45,553 bases of DNA from Deferribacterales bacterium (GTDB lineage: Bacteria > Chrysiogenota > Deferribacteres > Deferribacterales > Geovibrionaceae), in the NCBI GenBank assembly GCA_050253335.1, contig JBFWJG010000014.1, forward strand, positions 1 to 45,553, read 5' to 3'. Position numbers and translations under genes: made by a program. Positions 31,086-45,553 of this stretch are shown in pieces (the stretch's first letter is position 1; each line of letters begins with the position of its first letter). Below the pieces are notes generated by a model that worked only from the letters and a program-made list of their open reading frames with translations, was not told where the DNA came from and made no database searches.

Positions 31086-31508
31086 ATGAAAAACGCGATT
31101 ATTTTTCTCTTTGCCGCATTCATTGCGGTTTTCACGGCGTTTTCCCCTTCCCCTGCGGCTGCGGGCATCCTGACTGAATCGTCCGGAAGCTCTCCGGCAT
31201 GTATTTCATGTCATTCTGTTTCCGCAATGGGGCTTGAGGGAGGCTTTCTCGCATCGGACATAAGCAGTTTTGCGGAGGATTTCGGCGCAGAGGGAGCGGC
31301 GGATTTCCTGAAGGATATTCCTATTGAGGTTATGGCGGCGGCCTATTCCGCAAGGCCTCTCACCGACGGGGATATTGAAGGACTGCTCAGGGATTTCGAA
31401 GGCGGAAAGGTGTTCGGGATTAACCATATTGCCGCGGGCGCGGCTTTGGCTTTTGTGCTTACGCTGTTTTTGCGGTTTGTGTTCCGCCGCAGAGGAGGCA
31501 GGGAATGA
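31086..31508 (+). CDS. Membrane-anchored monoheme cytochrome c (NarC-like)
   Basis: Signal peptide, one CxxCH (CISCH), a candidate axial Met (EVMAAAY) and a C-terminal TM; ATGA overlap with narG. Confidence 0.8.
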   Translation: MKNAIIFLFAAFIAVFTAFSPSPAAAGILTESSGSSPACISCHSVSAMGLEGGFLASDISSFAEDFGAEGAADFLKDIPIEVMAAAYSARPLTDGDIEGLLRDFEGGKVFGINHIAAGAALAFVLTLFLRFVFRRRGGRE

Positions 31509-34500
31509 CAGTGAAAAAATCAGACCATATGAAGGATATACATAAACCCGCGGAAAGGGCGGGCGAGGATTTTTACCGTGTGCGCAGCACCTACGACAAG
31601 GTTGTGAGAAGCACTCACGGGGTGAACTGCACCGGAAGCTGCAGCTGGAATATCTATGTCAAAAACGGCATTGTCACCAATGAGCTTCAGGCGGTGGACT
31701 ACCCTCAGCTTGATCACGAAATCCCTAACTATGAACCCAGAGGCTGTGCAAGGGGAGCGTCATTCTCATGGTATCTCTACAGCCCTCTGAGGGTGAAATA
31801 CCCTTATGTCCGGGGAAGGCTTCTTGACCTGTGGACGGATGCCAGAAAACGCTTCGCTGACCCTGTCGCCGCGTGGGAATCAATAATGACGGACGAAGCG
31901 GCGAGAAAATCCTTTCAGCAGGCAAGGGGAAAGGGCGGGCTCAGGCGAACAGACTGGGACACTGTCCTTGACATCATTGCCGCATCAACAGTTTACACTG
32001 TCAAAAAATACGGTCCGGACAGGATAACCGGCTTCTCTCCCATTCCTGCCATGTCTCAGGTGAGCTATGCGGCGGGGGCGAGGTTCCTCCAGCTCATAGG
32101 CGGTTCATGCCTCAGTTTTTACGACTGGTACTGCGACCTTCCCGCCGCCTCACCCCAGATATGGGGCGAGCAGACTGACGTGTGCGAAAGCGCCGACTGG
32201 TACAACTCCATGTACACAGTGCTCATGGGTTCCAACGTCAGCATGACGAGAACGCCCGATGCCCACTTCCTTGCGGAATCAAGATACAAGGGCACAAAGG
32301 TTGTGGTGCTTTCGCCGGACTACAGTCAGGCGGTTAAGCACGCGGATCTCTGGGTTCCCCTGAAAAAGGGGCAGGACGCCGCCTTCTGGCTTGCTGTCAA
32401 CAACGTTATAATAAATGAATTCTACAATAAAAAAGACACACCGTACTTCACTGAGTATGTGAAGAAATACACCGACCTTCCTTTTCTCGTGAGGCTTGAG
32501 GAGACCAAAGACGGCTTTAAGGCGGGCAGGTATCTCCGTGCCTCGGACATTGACTCATTTGCGGGCGAAGAGAACGCGGCGTGGAAAATGCTCCTCATGG
32601 ATGAGTCCACAGGGGCGCTCTACTCCCCCAAGGGAACCATAGGCTACAGATGGGCAAAGGAAAAGGGTAAGTGGAACCTTGAAAGCACAGACGGGATAGA
32701 GGGTCTGGAACGTTCGCCCGTGCTCACTTTCAGTGATGCCGAGGTTGAACTCTGCACTGACGGCTACGGCGCGGAGGGTGAATATTCCCCCGTGAAAAGA
32801 AAGGCTGGAGCGAAAAAGATAAAAACCGTTCACGGCGATGTTTATGTCGCCACTGTTTTTGACATACTCCGTGCCAGCCTCGGCGCAGGAGAGAACTATT
32901 ACGAAAACGCCCCGTACACACCCGCATGGCAGAAACAGTTCACAGGCATAGAGCCGGAAACGGTAATAAAGGTTGCCCGTGAGTTCGCCGAAAACGCCGA
33001 GAAGACCGGCGGCCGTTCCATGATCATAATCGGAGCGGGCGTAAATCAATGGTATCACTCAGACCTTTCGTACAGAGCGGCAATAATGGCGCTTATGCTC
33101 ACAGGCTCCGTCGGGGTAAACGGCGGCGGGCTTGCGCACTATGTCGGGCAGGAGAAAGTGGCTATGCTTTCCTCATGGTCGGCTCTCGCCATGGCAGGGG
33201 ACTGGTGCAAGCCTCCGAGGCTCCAGAACGCTCCGTCCTTCTGGTATATCCACTCGGATCAGTTCAGGTATGAGGGCTCTGTGTTCGACTACTTCGCAGT
33301 GCCTGATAAGGAGAAGTTCAAAGAACAGCACTCCGCGGATTTCAATGCAAAAGCTGTCCGGCTGGGCTGGCTGCCTTTCTACCCGCAGTTCTGCGGAAGC
33401 TCCATAGACGCAGCGGAGGAGGTTCTCCGCGAGGCTGACGGGGACAAGGCAAAGGCGATGAAGATAACCGCCTCAAAACTGAAAAAAGGGGAGATGAAAT
33501 TCGCTGTAGAGGAACCGGATAATCCTGAGAACTTTCCCCGCGTTTGGTACATTTGGCGCGGAAACGCCATATCATCCAGCGCAAAAGGGCATGAATACTT
33601 CCTCAAGCATGTTCTCGGCACGGATCACTCAGTCCACGCGGAGGAGACAGGCTTCGGATTCGAGAACATAAAAGGCGCAAAGGGCGCGGAAGGAAAGGTC
33701 GATCTCATAGTGGATCTCAACTTCCGCATGGACACCTCCGCCGTTTATTCGGACATAATTCTCCCCGCCGCCACATGGTATGAGAAGAATGACCTCAACA
33801 CCAGCGACATGCACACCTTTGTGCACCCGCTGACAGAGGCTGTTCCGCCCCTTTGGGAATCCGCGGGAGACTGGGAGATCTTCCGCCGCATAGCCGAAAA
33901 ATTTTCGGAAACGGCATCGGCGCATTTCCCTAAGCCGGTTTACGACCTTGTGGCGACCCCCCTTGCCCACGATTCGCCGGACGAGATAGCTCAGGAAAAT
34001 GTAACCGACTGGAAATACGGCCACGAAGACCCCATACCCGGCAAAACCATGCCGAAGCTGACCTTTGTGGAACGTGACTACAGAAAAATACACGAAAAAT
34101 ACATAACCCTCGGCAAAAGCATAAGGGAAAACGGCATAGGCGCCCACGGCGTTAGCTGGAACAGCAGAGAGGAATATGACGACCTGAAAAAGATCAACGG
34201 TTCAAGATACATGGAAGGGGAGGAGATGGCTGATGTGTCAACAGCGCTGAAAGCCTCTTCCGCGATTCTCCGGCTTGCGCCGGAGGGGAACGGGCAGGTG
34301 TCCCTCAAAGCGTTCCGGGATCTTGAAGCGAAGACAGGCAGACCGCTCGCACATCTTGTTGAGGGGTATGAACAGTATTCTGTTTCGTTTGACGAGATAA
34401 CCCGCCAGCCCCGCAGGATAATCAACTCCCCCTGCTGGAGCGGCAAGATAGAAAAGGGGAGAACCTACGCCCCGTACACGCTCAATGTTGAGGATCTTGT

Positions 34501-35086
34501 GCCGTGGCGCACCCTCACGGGGAGACAGCAGTTTTATCTGGATCATGAAATGTATATTCAGGCGGGGGAAAACCTTCCGGTTTACAAGCCTGAGCTGGAT
34601 ATGGAAATGCTGGGCGAAACGGAGGGCGGAGACGGGCTTGTGCTCAACCTCCTCACCCCTCACGGAAAATGGAACATCCACAGCACATACTTTGACAATG
34701 AAAGGATGCTCACCCTCTCAAGGGGCGGTCAGTGCGTATGGCTCAGCGAGAAGGACGCGGAAAAGGCGGGCATAGCCGACAACGACTGGCTTGAAATGAG
34801 CAACAGAAACGGAAATGTGGTGTGCAGGGCAGTGGTCAGCGTGCGCATACCTGAGGGAATGTGCCTGATGTATCATGCGCCGGAACGCACCATAGATGTT
34901 CCCTTGAGCCCCTCAACAGGCAAAAGGGGCGGCGTGCACAACAGCCTCTCCCGTGTGCGGCTCAAACCCACCCTCATGGCGGGCGGCTACGGGCAGTTCA
35001 CATACTATTTCAACTACTGGGGCCCCATAGGTGTAAACAGGGAAACCTTTGTGAAAATAAGAAAACTTAATGAAGTGAGGTACTGA
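31505..35086 (+). CDS. narG: Respiratory nitrate reductase alpha subunit
   Basis: STHGVNCTGSCSW, PRGCARGASFSWY, SFYDWYCDLP (Asp ligand), WRTLTGRQ and TPHGKWNIHS. No Tat signal, so probably cytoplasm-facing. Confidence 0.97.
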   Translation: MTVKKSDHMKDIHKPAERAGEDFYRVRSTYDKVVRSTHGVNCTGSCSWNIYVKNGIVTNELQAVDYPQLDHEIPNYEPRGCARGASFSWYLYSPLRVKYPYVRGRLLDLWTDARKRFADPVAAWESIMTDEAARKSFQQARGKGGLRRTDWDTVLDIIAASTVYTVKKYGPDRITGFSPIPAMSQVSYAAGARFLQLIGGSCLSFYDWYCDLPAASPQIWGEQTDVCESADWYNSMYTVLMGSNVSMTRTPDAHFLAESRYKGTKVVVLSPDYSQAVKHADLWVPLKKGQDAAFWLAVNNVIINEFYNKKDTPYFTEYVKKYTDLPFLVRLEETKDGFKAGRYLRASDIDSFAGEENAAWKMLLMDESTGALYSPKGTIGYRWAKEKGKWNLESTDGIEGLERSPVLTFSDAEVELCTDGYGAEGEYSPVKRKAGAKKIKTVHGDVYVATVFDILRASLGAGENYYENAPYTPAWQKQFTGIEPETVIKVAREFAENAEKTGGRSMIIIGAGVNQWYHSDLSYRAAIMALMLTGSVGVNGGGLAHYVGQEKVAMLSSWSALAMAGDWCKPPRLQNAPSFWYIHSDQFRYEGSVFDYFAVPDKEKFKEQHSADFNAKAVRLGWLPFYPQFCGSSIDAAEEVLREADGDKAKAMKITASKLKKGEMKFAVEEPDNPENFPRVWYIWRGNAISSSAKGHEYFLKHVLGTDHSVHAEETGFGFENIKGAKGAEGKVDLIVDLNFRMDTSAVYSDIILPAATWYEKNDLNTSDMHTFVHPLTEAVPPLWESAGDWEIFRRIAEKFSETASAHFPKPVYDLVATPLAHDSPDEIAQENVTDWKYGHEDPIPGKTMPKLTFVERDYRKIHEKYITLGKSIRENGIGAHGVSWNSREEYDDLKKINGSRYMEGEEMADVSTALKASSAILRLAPEGNGQVSLKAFRDLEAKTGRPLAHLVEGYEQYSVSFDEITRQPRRIINSPCWSGKIEKGRTYAPYTLNVEDLVPWRTLTGRQQFYLDHEMYIQAGENLPVYKPELDMEMLGETEGGDGLVLNLLTPHGKWNIHSTYFDNERMLTLSRGGQCVWLSEKDAEKAGIADNDWLEMSNRNGNVVCRAVVSVRIPEGMCLMYHAPERTIDVPLSPSTGKRGGVHNSLSRVRLKPTLMAGGYGQFTYYFNYWGPIGVNRETFVKIRKLNEVRY

Positions 35087-35088
35087 TT

Positions 35089-36513
35089 ATGGATGTCAGG
35101 GCGCAACTTTCGATGGTTCTTCATCTTGATAAATGCATAGGCTGCCACACCTGCTCCGTCACCTGCAAGAACCTTTGGACAAACAGAAAAGGGACGGAAT
35201 ACATGTGGTGGAACAATGTTGAGACACGTCCCGGCACAGGCTATCCGAAAAACTGGGAGGATCAGGCAAAGTTCCGCGGCGGATGGGAGATAAAGGACGG
35301 CTCCCCCGTGCTCAGGGCGGGCTCCAAATGGGGAATACTCTCGCGTATTTTTCATAATCCCGACCAGCCTGTGATGAAAGATTACTACGAGCCTTTCACA
35401 TATGACTACGCCAATCTCATGGACGCTCCGGAAAGCGTGAACCAGCCCATAGCCAGAGCCAAATCCCGCGTAACGGGCGAAAACATGAACATTGAGGCAG
35501 GCCCCAACTGGGACGATGACCTAGGCGGCTCAAAGAAATATGCGGCGAATGATCCCAACCTCACAGATGAGGACAGGGCGCTTTTCGGCGAGTTTGAGAA
35601 AATTTTTATGATGTACCTTCCCCGCCTGTGCAACCACTGCCTTAATCCGGCGTGTGCGGCGGCCTGCCCCTCCGGCTCTATATATAAAAGAGGTGAGGAC
35701 GGCATAGTCCTGAACGATCAGGAAAAATGCCGTGCGTGGCGCTACTGCGTCAGCGCATGCCCCTACAAAAAAATCTATTACAACTGGGACAGGGGCAAGT
35801 CGGAGAAGTGCATCTTCTGCTATCCGAAAAGCGAAAACGGCGAACCCTCCGCCTGCGCTCATTCATGCGTAGGGCGCATCCGCTACACTGGGGTTCTCCT
35901 TTACGATTACGACAGGCTCATTCAGGTTCTGGACGCGCCGGAGGAAACCCTTGTCGATGCTCTGAGAAGCTGCATCCTCGATCCTTCCGATCCGGAGGTC
36001 AGAAAGAACGCGAAAAAGGCGGGCATAGAGCCGGACTGGATTCAGGCGGCGGAAAACTCCCCCGTTTATGCCTTCGTGAAGGAATTCGGGCTTGCCCTGC
36101 CGCTCCATCCGGAATTCAGAACATTCCCCATGGTGTTCTACGTTCCTTCGCTTTCCCCTGTACTGCGCAAGGCGGAAACGGATATGACAATGGAAAACTT
36201 CCGCATTCCGGTTAAGTATCTGGCTTCGGTTTTCACCGCAGGCAATGAAACTGCCGTGGAGGACACGCTGAAAAAGCTTCTGGGCATAAGGAGCTACATG
36301 CGCGGCAAGGGGCTTGATGACAATGAGCTTATGGAAAAGGGTGTGTCCCTTTCCGGCTGGAGCGGGCAGGAGCTCGAAAAGGCCTACAGGCTCACTTCCC
36401 TTGCCAATTTTGCGGGAAGATTCGTGATACCGAAAACCCGCAGGGAAAACGGTTGTTCGTATGAAATGCAGGGTGCAGAGGGGTTTTTGAATCATGGAAA
36501 AAACAAACGCTGA
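35089..36513 (+). CDS. narH: Respiratory nitrate reductase beta subunit
   Basis: LDKCIGCHTCSVTCK, PRLCNHCLNPAC, CRAWRYCVSACPYKK and PLHPEFRT. Confidence 0.97.
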   Translation: MDVRAQLSMVLHLDKCIGCHTCSVTCKNLWTNRKGTEYMWWNNVETRPGTGYPKNWEDQAKFRGGWEIKDGSPVLRAGSKWGILSRIFHNPDQPVMKDYYEPFTYDYANLMDAPESVNQPIARAKSRVTGENMNIEAGPNWDDDLGGSKKYAANDPNLTDEDRALFGEFEKIFMMYLPRLCNHCLNPACAAACPSGSIYKRGEDGIVLNDQEKCRAWRYCVSACPYKKIYYNWDRGKSEKCIFCYPKSENGEPSACAHSCVGRIRYTGVLLYDYDRLIQVLDAPEETLVDALRSCILDPSDPEVRKNAKKAGIEPDWIQAAENSPVYAFVKEFGLALPLHPEFRTFPMVFYVPSLSPVLRKAETDMTMENFRIPVKYLASVFTAGNETAVEDTLKKLLGIRSYMRGKGLDDNELMEKGVSLSGWSGQELEKAYRLTSLANFAGRFVIPKTRRENGCSYEMQGAEGFLNHGKNKR

Positions 36514-37021
36514 AGATATATTCAAATCCTTCGCAGTGCTGACGGACTACCCGTCCGATCTGTCTGTGGTGAAGGAGCACTGCCGCAGGCTGGAATACGC
36601 GGGACTGGCGGAAGGGTGTTTCGCTCTTCTGCCGTCAGACACGGAAGCCCTGCAGGAGGAGTACACAAGGCTTTTCGACTTCGGCAGGGATACAGCTCCG
36701 TATGCCGCCTTTCATGTGTTCAGCGATGAAAGGAGAAGAGCCGCTTTCATGGCGGGGCTTATGGGCAGGTACGCCGAAACCGGCTTTAAGCGCAGAACGG
36801 GCGAGCTGCCGGACTATATCCCCTATGTTCTCGATTTTATAAGCGAGAGCGGGGCGGAAAGGTGCGCTGAACTGACGGAAACTCTTTCGCAGGCGGCAGA
36901 AAGAATAGCCGCCGCCCCCATGCTGAGAAAAAGCGGCTACGGGCTGATTTACGGTTCTCTGAAAAAATTTGCTGATGAATGCCTCAAAGGAGGGGAAGAT
37001 GAGCTGGAACACATTCTTTAA
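36494..37021 (+). CDS. narJ: Nitrate reductase maturation chaperone
   Basis: LQEEYTRLFD and ELPDYIP; lies between narH and narI. Confidence 0.85.
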   Translation: MEKTNAEDIFKSFAVLTDYPSDLSVVKEHCRRLEYAGLAEGCFALLPSDTEALQEEYTRLFDFGRDTAPYAAFHVFSDERRRAAFMAGLMGRYAETGFKRRTGELPDYIPYVLDFISESGAERCAELTETLSQAAERIAAAPMLRKSGYGLIYGSLKKFADECLKGGEDELEHIL

Positions 37022-37658
37022 TATATTTCCGTATATAACTTTGGCTGCAGCTGTTTTCGGGACAGCGGCGGCTTACCGGAACAACAGGTACAGAATAAGC
37101 ACCCGCGCAGGCGGGTTTCTGGAAAACAGAAAGCTCTGGGGTTCTGTTCCGTGGCATTACGGAATAATCATTGTCCTCACCGGACACGTGATCGGTGTTA
37201 TTGCGCCGTCCTTTGTGCTCTCGCTCACCGGAAATATGGGAGTGCTCGCGGCTCTTGAAACCCTTGCCTTCTCGGCGGGTCTGCTCTGCCTTTTCGGACT
37301 TGGTGCGCTCATTCTGAGGAAGCTTTCGGACAGATACGCCCTCTCACAGACTCAGGCGGGAGACTGGCTTGTGCTTGTGCTTCTTGTTTTTCAGGTGCTC
37401 AGCGGGCTTTATATCTCGGCGTTTCACAAATGGGGCATCAACTGGTATGCCTCAAACGCTTCTGTTTATGTTCTCTCCGTGCTGAAATTCAGCCCGCAGG
37501 GGGACATTATAACGGCTCTGCCCCTTGCCGTCAGGCTTCATGTTCTCAATATGTTCCTGATTATCGGGGCTCTGCCTTTCACAAGGCTGATCCATGTTTT
37601 TGCAGTGCCGCTGAAATATCCTTTCCGCCCGCACATAATATTCAGATGGAACAGGTAA
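36999..37658 (+). CDS. narI: Respiratory nitrate reductase gamma subunit (cytochrome b)
   Basis: FPY, WHYGIIIVLTGH and LH..PFTRLIH (four heme His). ATG 36999 follows GGAGGGG. Confidence 0.92.
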   Translation: MSWNTFFNIFPYITLAAAVFGTAAAYRNNRYRISTRAGGFLENRKLWGSVPWHYGIIIVLTGHVIGVIAPSFVLSLTGNMGVLAALETLAFSAGLLCLFGLGALILRKLSDRYALSQTQAGDWLVLVLLVFQVLSGLYISAFHKWGINWYASNASVYVLSVLKFSPQGDIITALPLAVRLHVLNMFLIIGALPFTRLIHVFAVPLKYPFRPHIIFRWNR

Positions 37659-37668
37659 GGAGGAAGCT

Positions 37669-38973
37669 ATGAGCTATATCGCAAAAGGCTCGCCCCTAAA
37701 AGGTCTTACGGGAGCCACACTCGGCTTCTTCTTCGGGTTCGCGGCGGTCGCCCTTTTCGGGCCGACGGCAAAAAAACTTCAGGTGATAATGGGAATAAGC
37801 CCTGCGCAGGTCGGTCTTCTGGTGGCTATTCCGGCTTTGTCCGGCTCGCTTCTGCGAATCCCATTTTCCGCATGGGTGGATAAGGACGGCGGGCGGAAAC
37901 CGTTCATGGTTCTCCTTCTTATGGCGCTTGCGGGTATGGTGGGTCTCTCCGCGCTTTTTCTCACCAGATACCCGGACAACATGACGGCGGATCTCTATCC
38001 GCTGATTCTTCTCTTCGGCTTTATGAGCGGCTGCGGCATAGCCACATTCTCAGTGGGGATAAGTCAGGTGGCCTACTGGTTTCCGCAGAAGAAGCAGGGC
38101 TGGGCTCTGGGGACCTTCGGCGGTCTGGGGAACCTTGCCCCGGGGATATTCTCGTTTCTTCTGCCTCTGGCTTTATCGATAATGCCTCTTCCGGCCGCTT
38201 ATGTTGTGTGGAGCCTCATTCTCTTCACCGGCGTTTGCGTTTACTGGTTTACGGCGTTCAACGCCCCGTATTTTCAGGCGCTTTCACAGGGCGCCTCGAA
38301 GGAGGAGGCCAAAGAATTCGCGGTAAATCTTTACTCCGAAGCCTCGCAGAAGCAGGAGCTTTTCCCCTCCGGCGGCGTGGTGTACACCCTTGTCAAGTCA
38401 GCCTCCAATCCGTATACATGGATACTTGTCCTGCTCTATTTCGTGACCTTCGGCGGGTTCATCGCACTCACCGCGTGGTTCCCGACATTCTGGCAGTCGC
38501 TCTACGGCTTTTCGGTGACTTCGGCGGGTTTCCTCACTGCGTTTTACGCGGTTCTCACCTCCCTTTTCCGTGTGCCGGGCGGCAGTTTTGCGGATAAAAT
38601 AGGCGGAACTGCGGCGTCGCTTGTATCTGTGGCTGTTCTGGGCGCGGGTTCTCTTCTTGTGGTGTTCACGGGTAATTTTCCTCTGACAGTCCTCGGCATA
38701 ATGCTTATGGCGGTGGGCATGGGGGTCAACAACGCGGCAGTTTTCAAACTCGTTCCGAAATACATACCCGAAGCAATAGGCGGAGCGGCGGGCTGGGTAG
38801 GCGGACTCGGAGCCTTCGGCGGCTTTGTCCTCCCCCCTGTGCTGGCTTCATATGTGAGCAGAAACGGAGACGCGGGCTACAGACAGGGCTTTATCGTTTA
38901 TGTTCTGATGGCTGTTCTGTCTGTGCTGCTTATATTATTTCTTAAAAGATCTGAAAAGAGAGGCGGCAGATGA
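37669..38973 (+). CDS. narK: Nitrate/nitrite MFS transporter
   Basis: LLRIP, GxGN nitrate signature (GGLGNLAPG), TFGGF and GWVGGLGAFGGF. Confidence 0.88.
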   Translation: MSYIAKGSPLKGLTGATLGFFFGFAAVALFGPTAKKLQVIMGISPAQVGLLVAIPALSGSLLRIPFSAWVDKDGGRKPFMVLLLMALAGMVGLSALFLTRYPDNMTADLYPLILLFGFMSGCGIATFSVGISQVAYWFPQKKQGWALGTFGGLGNLAPGIFSFLLPLALSIMPLPAAYVVWSLILFTGVCVYWFTAFNAPYFQALSQGASKEEAKEFAVNLYSEASQKQELFPSGGVVYTLVKSASNPYTWILVLLYFVTFGGFIALTAWFPTFWQSLYGFSVTSAGFLTAFYAVLTSLFRVPGGSFADKIGGTAASLVSVAVLGAGSLLVVFTGNFPLTVLGIMLMAVGMGVNNAAVFKLVPKYIPEAIGGAAGWVGGLGAFGGFVLPPVLASYVSRNGDAGYRQGFIVYVLMAVLSVLLILFLKRSEKRGGR

Positions 38974-39332
38974 AGGATATTATTTTTCAGATGGCTGAAA
39001 AGACGGACGACGGAATAATGTATGTGACCGCTGACGGAAATATCGCTTACTGGAACAGGGGATGCGAGAGGATTTTCGGTTTCTCGGCCGCTGAGGCGGC
39101 GGGAGCGAACCTTGATATTATCATCCCCGAAAAACACAGAAAAAGGCACTGGGACGGTTTTCACAAGGTTCTGGAAACCGGCCGCACAGCCTATTCCGGC
39201 AAGATGCTCAAAGTTCCCGCCATAAGAAAGGACGGGGAAAAGCTCATAATCGAATTCAGTATGCAGATTATTGAACAGGAAGGAAAAAACGCAGGGTTTA
39301 CGGCTATTGTCAGGGATGTTGCACAGAAATAA
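38970..39332 (+). CDS. Stand-alone PAS domain protein (FixL-like heme PAS possible)
   Basis: IAYWNRGCERIFGFS, LDIIIP..RH, RKDG and IVRDV; ATGA overlap with narK. Confidence 0.85.
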   Translation: MKDIIFQMAEKTDDGIMYVTADGNIAYWNRGCERIFGFSAAEAAGANLDIIIPEKHRKRHWDGFHKVLETGRTAYSGKMLKVPAIRKDGEKLIIEFSMQIIEQEGKNAGFTAIVRDVAQK

Positions 39333-39483: not shown

Positions 39484-39649
39484 GAAATAATACCGCAAGG
39501 GGGATATTTTGCGCCAGAGAGACGAAATAATGATGAATAATGATAAAATGACACGTAATTCACAGCTTCTAACTATGTCTTTTTTTTCAGAGGCTTAGGC
39601 CATACTTATCTTGCGCATGACACCTTCGGCGTGCTATTATTCAGGCATT

Positions 39650-40438
39650 ATGGGAGAAATAATAACCTTCGCGAATAAAAAAGGAGGGAGCGGAAAAACT
39701 TCCGCTGTTCTTAACATAGGCGCGGCGGCAGGGAGCAGGGGGAAAAAGATCCTTCTGATCGACCTTGACCCGCAGGCGCATCTCTCCTACTGGTCCGGCG
39801 TTAACACCTATGACACCTACCCCAATATCTACGGCGCGGTGCTGGGTGAATATTCCGCCGATGACGCTCTTTTTAAGCCCTCCCACGGGCTTTATGACAT
39901 TATCCCTGCCTCCACGGGCTTCTCTCACCATGATCTGCGCAGGCTCCTTGACGGAGTAAGCGTGGAGGCGAAGCTCGCAAAGTGTCTTTTAAAAATCAGG
40001 GAAAGATACGACTATATCTTCATAGACACGCCCCCGACCGTGGCGGTGCTTACGCTGAATGCCCTTGTGGCTTCCAGATTCGTGCTTATTCCCGTTCTTC
40101 TGAACTTTCTTGCCATTGAAGGTCTGGCGCAGCTTGCCCAGAACATTTACCGCATAAACATGGCGCACAATCCTGATCTTCGGATTATGGGCATCATCCC
40201 CAACCAGCACGACATCAGGAGCAACCATGCCAAAAAGGTCATGAAGGAGCTTTACGAGAACTTCGGCGAGGATATGGTCACCCCCAGAGTCAGGAGCGAT
40301 GTCAAAATAGCCGAGGCTCCGGAGGCAAGGCTCCCCATAAATCTTTACGCTCCGGCAAGCAGAGGAGCTATGGATTTCAGCATTCTGACCGATTACATCC
40401 TCAGCAAAGTCGAGGAGGAAGCGGGAGTGAAGAAATGA
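39650..40438 (+). CDS. ParA/Soj-family ATPase (orphan, chemosensory-operon type)
   Basis: Deviant Walker A NKKGGSGKT, LLIDLDPQA and YDYIFIDTPP; no parB follows. The probable start is ATG 39650, preceded by TG-C-TATTAT and no SD. Confidence 0.9.
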   Translation: MGEIITFANKKGGSGKTSAVLNIGAAAGSRGKKILLIDLDPQAHLSYWSGVNTYDTYPNIYGAVLGEYSADDALFKPSHGLYDIIPASTGFSHHDLRRLLDGVSVEAKLAKCLLKIRERYDYIFIDTPPTVAVLTLNALVASRFVLIPVLLNFLAIEGLAQLAQNIYRINMAHNPDLRIMGIIPNQHDIRSNHAKKVMKELYENFGEDMVTPRVRSDVKIAEAPEARLPINLYAPASRGAMDFSILTDYILSKVEEEAGVKK

Positions 40439-41934
40439 AACGCTGCGTGGGTATAGATTTCGGAACCAGCAATTCCATGATAGCCGTCTGCAGGGACGGC
40501 GGAACAATAGATATTATAAGCTCTGAAAGCGGCAAGAGGTATCTGCCGTCCGTTATATATTTCAAAAACGGAAACGAAGCCGTGATAGGGGACAACGCAA
40601 AAAGCATGCAGCTTCTGGAGTCCGAACACACTATTGCGAATATCAAGAGATACATGGGGACAGACATGAAGTTCCCGCTCTACGGAAGGGAGTACAGGGC
40701 TGAGGAGCTTGCCTCGCTTATTTTCCGCAAGCTTAAAAAAAGCTTCGAGGATTACTCCGGCGAGAAGGAGGCGGACGCGGTTGTCACTGTTCCCGCTTAT
40801 TTCGATCATTACCAGAGGGAGGCTGTGCGCTCCGCCGCCGAGAATGCGGGGTTCAATGTTCTGCGTCTTCTGAACGAGCCCACATCAGCCGCTCTTTTTT
40901 ATAATAACATAGGCAAAAACACAGGCGATGTCTGCATGGTTTTTGACCTTGGAGGAGGCACGCTGGACATAAGCCTCATCGAGATGAAGGCGGACTGCTG
41001 CAAGGTTCTTTTCACAGGCGGCTCCACCGAAATCGGCGGAGTGGATTTTGATGTTATGGTTGCGGAGTATTTCATTGAAAACTTCCGCAGACAGCACGGG
41101 ATAGACCTTAAAAGCGACCCCATAGCCTATCAGCAGCTTCTTTTTCAGGCTGAGAAAGCAAAGATGGAGCTTTCCTCCCTGAACGAGGTGAATCTGGTTG
41201 TGCCTTATATCACTGTCACCAAAAAAGGCGCCCTGCATTTCAAGGAAACAATCACCAGGGAAACATTTGACAAAATCACAGCCCCCCTCACAAAGGGGAT
41301 AAAAAGCATAATAGACAGCCTGCTTGAATCAAACGGGCTTAAAGTCGAAGATATCGCAAAGGTTCTCCCCGTTGGCGGGGCATCCCGAATTCACAGCGTC
41401 CGCAGGCTTATAGCCGATATTTTCGGGGACAGGGTGAGGAAAGACATGAATCCGGAGGAGGCCGTAGTGAGCGGCGCCGCGGTGAACGCTGCAATGCTTT
41501 CCGGTCTGATGAACGACAAGGTTTTTCATGATGTAACCTCGCACAATCTGGGCATAGAGGATGATGACGGAAACTTCGAAGTAATCTTAAAGAAAAACGA
41601 AGTTTACCCTGTTGAGTTCAGCATGGTTTTCACCACTTCAGAGCCCGAAAGGAAAAATATTACTGTTCATATTCTGCAGGATATGGCAAAATCGTCACTA
41701 AACACAGGGGATTCCGTTGCTGAGAATCCCGAGCATTTCGTCAGTCTGGGCAGATTTTCAGTTGATATAGACATACCGGACGGCGGGGAACCTTTAATTG
41801 ATATTTCATTCATGATCGATGAAAGCGGAATCATAAGCGTTAAGGCGAAGGATGTCCGCTCGGAAAAAGAGACAGACTTCACACTCAGACTGAAAATTGA
41901 AAATGAGATTTTGAATACATTGGAAATATTCTGA
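40435..41934 (+). CDS. Hsp70/DnaK-family protein lacking the C-terminal helical lid
   Basis: [39 protein letters not shown] and NPEEAV, plus an SBD-beta-like region; ends at 499 aa. Confidence 0.9.
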
Positions 41935-41953: not shown

Positions 41954-44194
41954 ATGAAAAAACTGGCAAAGCCGTCAAGCCTTGAAGGCAGAACCGGGCT
42001 TGTGAAAAAAGAGGGAGTAGAGCTTCAGAAAAAAAGGGATGAAGCTAAGAGAACCGCCGCAGAAAAAGCGCGCACAAGAACCCTTGCCAAACAGCAGGCA
42101 AATGCGGAAAGGCTCGCCACCGCTTCTGAAGAGATGGCTTCCGCCATTGAACAGTCAAGCAGTGCGGCTAATCAGCTCGGAGACGCCATGGTTCAGGTCA
42201 CCGTGGCTTCGGCTCAGGTAAGCAGAACCTCCGAAAACATCAAGAACGAAACAGTTCAGCTTGAGCAGATAAGCCGCAAGGTTTATGACAACTCAAACAA
42301 GTACGACGTGGCTATCACCAAAATGAACGACCGCGTGGAAAATACCGTGGGAGCCGTCAAGGAGCTCAGGGAAAGCGTTGACAACACCACCAACAAGGTT
42401 GTCGAATCCACCTCCCTCGTGGAACAGCTTAAAGAAAAAGCAGGCTCCATTGAGCAGATAGTTCAGGTTGTTAAAAAGATAGCCGACCAGACAAACCTTC
42501 TGGCGCTGAACGCCGCAATCGAAGCCGCCAGAGCCGGAGAACACGGCAAAGGCTTTGCCGTTGTGGCGGATGAGGTGAGAACCCTTGCGGAAGTGTCTGA
42601 AGGCGCGGCAAAGGATATCAAGATCGTAATAGATTCCTCCCTTGAACAGGTCAGTCGTGTGGTGGAGAAAGTTACCGCATTTACCAAAGGCTCAAAAACA
42701 AACCTTTTCAAGGCAGACTTCATAAGCAACAAATGCGTTTCCATTAATGACGCCACAAAAATAATGCGTGAGCAGGTGGGCAAAATCAAGAAGGATTCCG
42801 AAAGCATCTGCATAGAATCCGGCAAGTCCCTTGATATTGTAAACCGCCTCGCCGCCGCCACGGAGCAGAACGCCACAGCCTCCGAAGAGGTAAGTAAATT
42901 CACCGAGGAACAGGCGAAGGCCTTTGCCGAGCTCACCGCCGCCGCCAATGAGATTGCGGAAATGTCTGAGGAGCTTAAAAACTCCACGGATATGTCAAAA
43001 TCATCCGAGGAAGTCGCCGCCGCCGCTGAGGAGCTTTCCGCAACGATCGAAGAGCTCAACGCCTCCGCGGAAGAGATACAGAAAGCGATAGACCAGATAG
43101 ATACAGGTACTCAGGAAATGGGTGAGGAACTCGGCGGAATAAAGCACGAGTTCAACACCATGCAGAAACTTCTGGACGAAGGGAACGAGTGCTGGGCGGT
43201 CATGATGGTTGAGGGTGAGAAAATCCTTGTGGAACTTGAGGAAATTAAAGCTCTTGACCATATCGTGTTCATAAACCAGCTTCAGGAAGCGCTGAACAAC
43301 AATACCCCGTTTGAAGGCCAGCTCGACCCCACAAAATGTGCCTTCGGCGCATGGTATCTCACTTACAAGCCCCACGACCATGATGAGGAAAAATGCTATC
43401 ACTCCATCCGTGAGCCTCACAACCACGTGCACCTCGGAGCGGCTGAGATAGTCCGCCTCATGCAAGAGGGCAAACTCGGCGAAGCCAGAGAGGTTTTCAA
43501 ACTCAAGGTTCTTCCGGGCGTGGACGGTTTCAAGAAGGAATACAGAGGCTTTCATAACGGTATTGAGCTTGTGGCGCTGGGCTTTGTAAAAAGCGTGGAG
43601 AGCATCAGGGAAATAAGCTCTGAAGTTAAACAGCTTTATAAATCATTCAGCAACATAAAGAAAATTGTAGATACAATAAACAACGTCGCCATACAGACAA
43701 ACATGCTCGCTGTTAACGGCAGCATTGAAGCCGCACGCTCCGGCGAATTCGGCAGGGGTTTCTCCGTGGTTGCCTCCGACATCCGCTCGCTTGCCAGCGA
43801 ATCCGCAGACAACGCCGACAAAATGAAGGACATTCTTGAAGAGATGTACGAGCAGACGGACAATTTCCAGACCGAACTTCAGGAAATAGGCCAGCTTATC
43901 CGTGTTCAGATAGAGAAGTCCGAAGTGGCAGTCGTCAACCTTATCGAGACAGTCAGACTCAGGACTGCCGCCGCTGAAACCCGCAGGGTTTCACAGGCGT
44001 TCTTTGAGGAGGGCGGTCTCATGGTTTCCAGAGTCAACTCAGCGTGCAACGAAAGCCTTGAGGTAGCGGAGAAGCTCAGAAAACTCACCGACGAGGCGAA
44101 ACTCGCCGCTGATGAGCAGGTGAAAGGGCTTAACGAAATAGCCGCCGCCGCTGAAGAGGTTGCTTCTCTCGCAGACGAAATGCAGGCTTACTGA
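41954..44194 (+). CDS. Cytoplasmic chemoreceptor with two signalling tips (DosM-like) and an inserted CZB zinc-binding domain
   Basis: No TM. Tip 1 is [30 protein letters not shown] and tip 2 is [33 protein letters not shown] motifs [13 protein letters not shown] and PHNHVH. Confidence 0.9.
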
Positions 44195-44211: not shown

Positions 44212-45553
44212 ATGGCTGAAATGAGCCCCGCAGCGGCATTAAACGGGGCGGAGCATTCTGATAAAAAGTATGTTTCGTTTACCGTAGGTTCGGAATATTT
44301 CGGAATACCCATAGATGAGGTGAGGCAGATTATACGCCTGCCGAGGGTCACCCGTGTGCCCAAGATGCCTGTTTTTGTTTTGGGCATAAGCAACCTCAGG
44401 GGGAGCGTTTTGCCCGTTCTTGATCTTTCCCTGAGACTCGGATACCCGAACCCCTGTGTCCATGGTGAGGACACAAGGGTGATTGTCACAGAGAAAGGCG
44501 GGTTTGAGATAGGCTTCGTGGTTGAATCGGTCAGCGAAGTGAAGTCCACCGAGACCGGCTCTTATGAAGAGATGCCCGAAATGCTTAACAGCGGGGCTGA
44601 CAGAAAGTTTATCTCCGGTGTTCTCAAGATGCGCACAAAGGACGGCATAAGGCTGGTTCAGGTTCTGGATTCCAGAGAACTTGTCAATATAGCCGAGATT
44701 CAGCGCAGTGTTGATGATTCATCCGCCCAGAGGGGCTTTGCGATGAAGGCCGATTCCTCCGAGCGTGAAACCTCGGACTACAGGCGCTTCATAAGCTTTG
44801 AGATAGACGGCCACGGCTACGCCATAGAAATTCACAGGATCAATGAGATAATCCGTCTCCCTGATTTTGTCGCCGTTCCCGGGCTGGAAAGCTATGTAAT
44901 GGGAATTTTCTCTCTCAGGGAAAAAGTTATCCCCCTTATGTCGCTTCACAGGAAGTTCGGCAAGAAGGAACGGCCGGATACGGAAGATACAAGGGTTGTC
45001 ATCATAGAGATAGAGAAAACGCTTGTGGGATTTATCGCAGACAGGGTGAGCGAAGTGCTCAGCGTGCCCGAATCCTCCATAGAGGAACCGCCCAAGGTTT
45101 TTGCCGAGTCCGGTTCCGAGATTGCCTCAATCATCAAGGCGGAAGAAGGGGAAAGGCTCGTTATGATTCTGGAAAGCGATAACCTGCTTCAGGCAAAAGA
45201 GGTGGAAGCCCTCAGAAAGCTTGCCCAGCAGGAAGGAGGAAGTTTTTCCATGAATGAAGCATCAGCCTCCGCAGATGAGGAAAAACAGATAGTCACATTC
45301 ACAATTGAGGATGAGGAATACGGAATCTTTATAGAAAAGGTTCAGGAAATCAACAGATACATAAACGTGACGAAAGTGCCAAAGACTCCGGCCTTCGTGG
45401 AGGGGATAGTAAACCTCAGAGGCGAGGTTATTCCTCTCATAGATTTAAGAAAGAGGTTTGAGCTCCCCGTCAGGGAAAAGGACGAGTTCACAAGAGTGAT
45501 AATAGTTAATCTCGCCAGTGTCCGTGTGGGCTTTGTGGTGGAAGATCGGAAGA
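44212..45553 (+). CDS. cheW: Triple-domain CheW, 3'-truncated (absent from the ORF track)
   Basis: Manual translation from AAGGAG-ATG 44212 gives three CheW repeats: YVSFTVGSEYFGIPI..GISNLRGSVLP, FISFEIDGHGYAIEI..GIFSLREKVIP and IVTFTIEDEEYGIFI..GIVNLRGEVIP. Confidence 0.9.
   Translation, partial: MAEMSPAAALNGAEHSDKKYVSFTVGSEYFGIPIDEVRQIIRLPRVTRVPKMPVFVLGISNLRGSVLPVLDLSLRLGYPNPCVHGEDTRVIVTEKGGFEIGFVVESVSEVKSTETGSYEEMPEMLNSGADRKFISGVLKMRTKDGIRLVQVLDSRELVNIAEIQRSVDDSSAQRGFAMKADSSERETSDYRRFISFEIDGHGYAIEIHRINEIIRLPDFVAVPGLESYVMGIFSLREKVIPLMSLHRKFGKKERPDTEDTRVVIIEIEKTLVGFIADRVSEVLSVPESSIEEPPKVFAESGSEIASIIKAEEGERLVMILESDNLLQAKEVEALRKLAQQEGGSFSMNEASASADEEKQIVTFTIEDEEYGIFIEKVQEINRYINVTKVPKTPAFVEGIVNLRGEVIPLIDLRKRFELPVREKDEFTRVIIVNLASVRVGFVVEDRK
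45543..45553 (+). other. Probable Illumina adapter remnant at the sequence end
   Basis: The terminal AGATCGGAAGA equals the first 11 nt of the TruSeq adapter AGATCGGAAGAGC. Confidence 0.85.

Follow-up and report, generated by a model that had tools for sequence, protein, structure and literature searches.

A DosM-family chemoreceptor with a CZB domain inserted in its second signaling domain: a candidate array scaffold with a built-in zinc/redox sensor

The closest described relative of the receptor analyzed here is Vibrio cholerae DosM (VC1403) of the F9 chemotaxis class, which is likewise soluble, carries two MCPsignal domains and is encoded as the first gene before a triple CheW in the order M-W3-B..R-Y-A (Briegel et al. 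2016, as summarized in parts of PMC7534058 and PMC9321776). In sections of these two reviews DosM is presented as a sensor-less scaffold that needs to recruit other receptors, and passages of Mo et al. 2022 (PMC9321776) put the fraction of DosM without sensory domains at 98%; note 5 to the S6 Table of that paper adds that two highlighted DosM "have a sensory CZB domain." Other proteins described with a CZB are built differently. Helicobacter pylori TlpD and Salmonella McpA are soluble MA-CZB receptors with a 3His/1Cys site, each having one signaling domain, a C-terminal CZB and a homodimer with two sites; in the CheW-CZB proteins (1.4% of CZB proteins in the available part of PMC8262984) the CZB lies midway in a chemotaxis scaffold domain, the host being CheW; and in Escherichia coli DgcZ the host is a diguanylate cyclase. 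The seven subgroups of that CZB survey, in the portion available (PMC8262984), do not include MCP-CZB-MCP, and its supplement text (3,999,895 characters, possibly incomplete) held 0 matches for Geovibrio, Denitrovibrio or the accessions concerned.

The window, as we call the whole stretch of DNA analyzed, comprises 45,553 nucleotides of contig JBFWJG010000014.1 from a Deferribacterales bacterium (assembly GCA_050253335.1). Its features relevant here are as follows.

39641..40438, + strand: ParA-family ATPase, first gene of the cluster (Pfam; kept in 8/8 loci, L002-L009)
40435..41934, + strand: short Hsp70-family gene, 499 aa, directly upstream of the receptor (kept with the cluster in 8/8 loci, L002-L009)
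41954..44194, + strand: DosM-CZB, a soluble chemoreceptor with a double signaling domain, 746 aa (single ORF; Pfam; hydropathy; orthology)
42083..42988, + strand: signaling domain 1 (about residues 44-345), tip at E196 (42539-42541) (Pfam MCPsignal; internal repeat; model)
42983..42991, + strand: interdomain junction S-T-D, residues 344-346 (AF2 helix break at the midpoint; conservation)
42989..44191, + strand: signaling domain 2 (346-746), tip at E598 (43745-43747), split by the CZB (Pfam; motifs; structure comparison)
43247..43558, + strand: CZB insert of about 102 residues (about 432-535, borders within about 12 residues), with H436, C462, H489 and H493 (Pfam; alignment; AF2 model)
44212..45553, + strand: triple CheW (CheW3), truncated where the contig stops, with the rest on contig C16

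Pfam recognizes two MCPsignal stretches (205.8 bits) in the receptor and a CZB (PF13682) at residues 436-500 (44.9 bits against a gathering cut-off of 29.4, E 1.5e-11), giving the MCPsignal-CZB-MCPsignal order that the first-pass annotation, made from the letters of the sequence, had proposed. That annotation's description of a soluble receptor with two tips also holds: its tip ranges translate to residues 176-206 and 578-608, each with a hairpin motif, and a transmembrane stretch is absent (the top 19-residue Kyte-Doolittle mean is 0.89). The ligand codons it named are in frame, encoding H436 (43259), C462 (43337, in CAFGAWY), H489 (43418) and H493 (43430), and by the definition given in a part of PMC8262984 both the 3His/1Cys core and the C-x-(L/F)-G-x-W-(Y/L) motif are present. 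Domain 1 consists of two arms of about 150 residues each, the protein contains a 300-residue internal repeat, and the model of the domain 2 tip superimposes on the receptor of the E. coli core unit (6s1k_E) with an rmsd of 1.5 over 102 residues. At the junction between the domains, a 225-sequence alignment has S in 198/225, T in 193/225 and D or N in 222/225 proteins.

The proposed identity as DosM is borne out by these two tips, by the missing membrane segment and by 95% identity to Geovibrio thiophilus WP_128467051.1 (P0003), a DosM of the S6 Table that also has the CZB; the Denitrovibrio acetiphilus protein (P0122) has the same form. These two proteins are very likely the two highlighted rows of that table. 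Because Mo et al. count CZB-bearing proteins as DosM, the domain marks a variant and not an exclusion from the family, and judged by its sequence the gene is a DosM in all features examined save the usual absence of a sensor. The statement that DosM has no recognized sensor domain is thus accurate for 98% of the family in the passages available (PMC9321776) and fails for the two listed proteins with a CZB.

We aligned 225 DosM-family proteins of 600-760 aa (177 plain and 48 with CZB; shorter and longer matches were excluded). The tip-to-tip spacing is 300 residues in 176 of the 177 plain proteins, the other having 305, and 400-404 residues in all 48 CZB forms, so that the insert measures about 102 residues and leaves the 300-residue register of the scaffold intact. 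It is real and no alignment artifact. The family shares its tip signatures and this register with the window protein (VC1403 is not among the aligned sequences), and the signature of plain DosM is retained at both tips. Relative to V. cholerae DosM, the window protein adds a CZB of about 102 residues in the N-arm of domain 2, and its gene has ParA and Hsp70 genes upstream. One alignment places the gap at 420-521 and another at about 432-535. All four ligands (HCHH) are kept in 48/48 CZB-bearing homologs, the ligands and the C-x-F/Y-G-x-W motif being invariant in members down to about 34% identity, and conservation is higher in the insert (0.69) than in the flanking arms (0.52-0.60).

A full-length AF2 model (78 sequences, mean pLDDT 88.4, pTM 0.63) has a helix at 347-432, CZB helices at 434-530, a loop and a restart of the arm at 537; the CZB is predicted as a side bundle whose first helix runs on from the arm, with rod length unchanged. 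In the register of plain DosM, the chain departs from the arm 64 residues ahead of tip 2 and rejoins it at 61, which at the 0.148 nm per residue of a coiled coil is about 9 nm from that tip; the insert is about 240 residues from tip 1. The comparison with plain DosM confirms the earlier placement of the CZB in the coiled coil toward tip 2. The predicted insertion point has a conserved Gly one heptad below it, and the methylation motifs, which follow the methylation consensus at residues 355-371, lie well above it. A sensor between methylation helix and tip, as the model predicts, is a position that we did not find described for chemoreceptors. In structural searches with the insert, a fragment model matches the DgcZ CZB (3t9o_B) with Z 9.2 and rmsd 4.1 over 114 aligned residues, rank 26 among helical bundles, a Z in the range of unrelated helical bundles that makes the match not distinctive (Foldseek probability 1.00, E 0.084). 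A phmmer search of PDB sequences for a solved relative of the insert gave 0 matches at E 1, and Foldseek with the full model returned only MCP and generic coiled coils; TlpD is missing from all fold lists, an absence that carries no weight.

Of the 16 genomes in the window's family, 15 have the gene, all 15 copies having the CZB and a spacing of 402, and the best-scoring homologs are Geovibrio proteins (94-96% across the region searched). Plain DosM occurs in two genomes (L028, L029) that belong to a different family of the order, and the 50 remaining genomes from outside the family yielded no match at E 1e-40, with 16 candidates scored in each. At least 44 CZB forms are among the best 120 homologs (7,997 candidates scored), and a search of 50% clusters found at least seven full and two partial CZB forms among the best 150 of 988; source labels of CZB forms include Thermodesulfobacteriota, Deltaproteobacteria, Firmicutes and Vulcanimicrobiota MAGs. 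As about 1,210 clusters match a query with the DosM junction, the CZB variant makes up a few per cent at most, which fits the 2/78 in Mo et al. The architecture, whose being common and already described the first-pass annotation had named as the finding that would speak against its proposal, is rare, and yet it is footnoted in Mo et al. 2022 (PMC9321776); the passages available from that paper and its S6 Table hold this single footnote and nothing on where the domain sits, how widely it occurs, where it came from or how it works.

When trees are built with the insert removed, a single branch separates CZB from plain forms (0.978 in the first); a second such tree has an SH-aLRT of 98 for 18 versus 23 chosen rows, unrooted and with long-branch warnings, and the sample of plain DosM is skewed toward top matches. 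The sequences fit, without proving it, a single origin followed by horizontal spread. Insertion inside the window's own lineage is rejected because the two plain DosM from its order (L028, L029) fall among the other plain proteins rather than beside the CZB forms, and a recent or foreign insertion is rejected by composition, with GC and GC3 of 0.506 and 0.603 in the insert against 0.51 and 0.60 in the flanks. Outside DosM the nearest CZBs belong to membrane receptors, where they are N-terminal or in tandem, and to CheW-CZB proteins, and from these nearest matches no donor can be named. The view that CZB domains are normally terminal needs corresponding qualification: terminal forms exist, and CZBs are found inside CheW domains and at the N terminus, often as tandem copies, in membrane receptors as well. 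An Atlas query (P0001) returned only single-MA CZB clusters, from a listing that is uninformative for small clusters.

Three CheW stretches (Pfam) make up the next gene, which opens onto a full F9 cluster. On C16 the end of CheW3 is followed by cheB, STAS, cheY, HEAT, cheR, cheY, cheA and cheY, and contigs from RNA runs exit the window at 45542 and run on into the CheW3 sequence of C16. The final 11 bases, 45543-45553, resemble a remnant of sequencing adapter. The block parA-hsp70-dosM-cheW3-cheB-STAS-cheY-HEAT-cheR-cheY-cheA is present in 8/8 related genome loci (cheW3 being split into two ORFs in L004), and its order matches the F9 order M-W-B..R-Y-A of the S1 and S6 Tables of Mo et al. (PMC9321776). 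Hsp70 is also found upstream of dosM in loci L028, L030 and L031. The ParA likely positions the array, a role suggested by ParA, ParC and PpfA. Contigs from four RNA runs of one study match parts of the gene, mostly at 95-99% identity, as coverage alone that we do not read as transcription.

Just upstream on the same strand, the translations of 31505-39332 suggest a respiratory nitrate reductase-like operon that includes a NarK-like transporter; the interval also holds a lone PAS protein (Pfam). The genome has three CheA genes and encodes one more CZB receptor, in which the CZB is C-terminal (C27:24526-26028). A 490-aa ORF after cheA-cheY (L001:7670-9142) is kept in related clusters and has no Pfam match; its Atlas features give 0.96 to a 'BB0569 family chemotaxis protein' cluster and to MCP-like clusters, and MCP tip profiles match it no better than they match shuffles. 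It is possibly a degenerate soluble receptor of the array.

Whether the CZB would act on one baseplate or on both depends on how the two domains pair, since an effect on one layer needs parallel homodimers in which like pairs with like. When two copies of domain 1 (104-290) and two of domain 2 with the CZB (400-692) were folded together with Zn, domain 1:domain 2 pairs formed along their full length with a score of 0.70, compared with 0.01 for the best of three controls, at a mark reached by 116/157 solved complexes and 2/215 mismatched pairs, counts that hold roughly here. At least 92% of contacts are shared between runs, partner pLDDT is at least 78, and the best contacts join 253-268 with 420-437; the prediction may nonetheless pass because it resembles receptor dimers already solved, and one paired alignment supplied both chains. 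Covariation (effective depth 49-69) peaks on cross-domain antiparallel bands. In the full set, both cross bands and N1-C1 beat 30/30 independent-site simulations and N2-C2 beats 29/30; in the plain-only set the C1-N2 band alone beats 34/34, and N1-C2 and both intra-domain positive controls fail. The raw bands had to be rejected as a strong signal because simulations without coupling already give about twofold band enrichment, about two-thirds of the enrichment being an artifact of symmetric variability. Taken together, covariation and fold evidence are suggestive, and we think it probable, from modeling and covariation, that domain 1 pairs with domain 2. Such pairing, which would then apply to the whole DosM family, implies one CZB per tip bundle and makes the suggestion that only one of two layers is modulated unlikely.

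Pairing of domain 1 with domain 2 would permit either a swapped antiparallel rod or a single chain folded back on itself, each with one CZB per tip bundle. In the second arrangement DosM would be a single-chain pseudo-dimer, folded back at S-T-D with its two tips docked on one baseplate, and units of 22 nm from either layer would overlap by about 9 nm to produce the 35-nm spacing that F9 arrays are reported to have, in place of a straight homodimeric rod of 44 nm. The helix break with its conserved motif at 344-346 supports folding back, as does the length of 300 residues, 44 nm, compared with 35 nm between baseplates in the available part of PMC7184735; the 300-residue spacing recurs in three DosM from the order of genome G068, VC1403 being outside this set. 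Sections of a review (PMC7534058) report a DosM rod that spans both plates, which counts against folding back, and we hold the folded arrangement only tentatively, as a minority reading. If it were true, the CZB form would be a one-chain, one-site receptor with its sensor wired below the methylation helix, and the F9 "strut" would itself be a signaling receptor for Zn and O2.

From sequence, models and analogy to described CZB proteins, we somewhat favor the reading that this is an F9-class DosM with a complete CZB in the arm to tip 2 that serves as array scaffold and also as Zn/redox sensor for the CheA of its own cluster. The CZB would project sideways as a bundle between the methylation helix and tip 2, some 9 nm above the latter, and with domain 1 paired to domain 2 there would be one CZB per four-helix tip bundle and a signal to both baseplates. 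By analogy with TlpD, DgcZ and McpA, Zn could be lost through oxidation of C462, or soluble Zn could drop with O2, peroxide or sulfide; Zn loss would loosen the CZB bundle, bend the coiled coil and shift CheA activity through CheW3, with CheR and CheB resetting the system at the retained methylation motifs. In TlpD, when the Zn site weakens, the helix leading on into the coiled coil moves and the tip becomes disordered, and crystal forms tie distortion of the Zn site to tip movement (sections of PMC12871147), and in the available part of a preprint McpA taxis tracks Zn availability, O2 and peroxides (10.64898/2026.07.03.735341). HOCl, the other cue suggested in the first-pass annotation, is unlikely to be the natural one for environmental anaerobes, for which Zn availability, O2 or peroxides fit better, and on this analogy the environmental Zn/redox state is the more likely cue than host HOCl. 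We found no paper showing control of CheA by any DosM.

The likeness to TlpD extends to the site itself: ligand spacing is 26/27/4 here and 25/28/4 in TlpD (H315, C340, H368, H372; from parts of PMC12871147), and the window protein shares with TlpD the Asp that precedes the first His and a Trp five residues after the Cys. The Arg of the TlpD Asp-Arg salt bridge is absent (A463 in the window protein), and TlpD is described in that source as having no canonical methylation sites (PMC12871147), in contrast to the methylation motifs of the window protein. In the modeled window protein, as in TlpD and McpA, the CZB is coupled to the receptor coiled coil about 9-14 nm from a tip. With its two MA domains and internal CZB, the window protein is not a member of the TlpD/McpA type, and by analogy it might work like TlpD; the allostery of TlpD may not transfer, the CZB being in an internal N-arm here and C-terminal there.

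Three other readings of the insert have to be weighed against a sensor that signals to CheA. The Zn site could instead be an assembly switch, in which losing Zn would partly unfold the arm, with redox state deciding whether the two-layer array is built or dissolved and without any kinase input. That would accord with accounts in which DosM is essential for array formation and F9 arrays arise under starvation or low oxygen (parts of PMC9321776, PMC7534058 and 10.64898/2026.05.11.724241), with the relocalization of TlpD under oxidative stress (a section of PMC12871147) and with the conserved ParA and Hsp70 upstream; the retained methylation motifs, CheR and CheB suit graded signaling better, in the model the insert branches off sideways and leaves rod length unaltered, and we regard an assembly switch as unlikely.

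A purely structural Zn bundle or docking spacer without regulation appears very unlikely: about 98% of DosM do without a CZB in the passages of PMC9321776 and the genome has another CZB receptor, but the ligands and the C-x-F/Y-G-x-W motif stay invariant across that range of identity and the CZBs studied in the literature examined are all regulatory. Somewhat less improbable, though still quite doubtful, is the polar arrangement of the first-pass annotation, with parallel homodimers that hold both CZBs by tip 2 and a strut that signals at one end. Homodimers are the established norm for ordinary receptors, DosM is described in sections of PMC7534058 as a rod with one signaling domain per end, and the insert lies 61-64 residues from tip 2 compared with about 240 from tip 1. 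Against this arrangement, domain 1:domain 2 pairs formed in the competition fold with homodimers on offer, a C1-N2 antiparallel band is impossible in a parallel straight rod, and even polar rods might point either way between baseplates built of the same proteins.

That CZB-bearing DosM exist was already footnoted, and we did not find the anatomy or the function of the insert described; judged by sequence, the form is real, rare and conserved. We found no literature that addresses where the insert sits, what it does or how DosM domains pair, subscription papers and bioRxiv supplements being outside the scope of the search, and the model of Briegel et al. 2016 may cover dimer topology and length. 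Carried by culturable environmental genera, a DosM that has its own putative sensor, one whose chemistry is known, would turn the control of CheA by DosM tips into a question for three purified proteins, and it bears on the role of CZB domains in environmental anaerobes.

Chemotaxis scaffold proteins with sensor-like additions also occur elsewhere among the loci compared. Single CheW proteins with a mid-domain CZB are encoded at L010:9701-10576 and L012:5346-6233, and a four-domain CheW beside a CZB-DosM (L030:9572-11647) has a CZB-like insert of its own that scores 28.4 bits, just under the cut-off, and in which the first His is not evident. A protein of 994 aa (P0319) combines a DosM-like junction region with Cache domains (precomputed Pfam) and is perhaps another sensor-bearing DosM.
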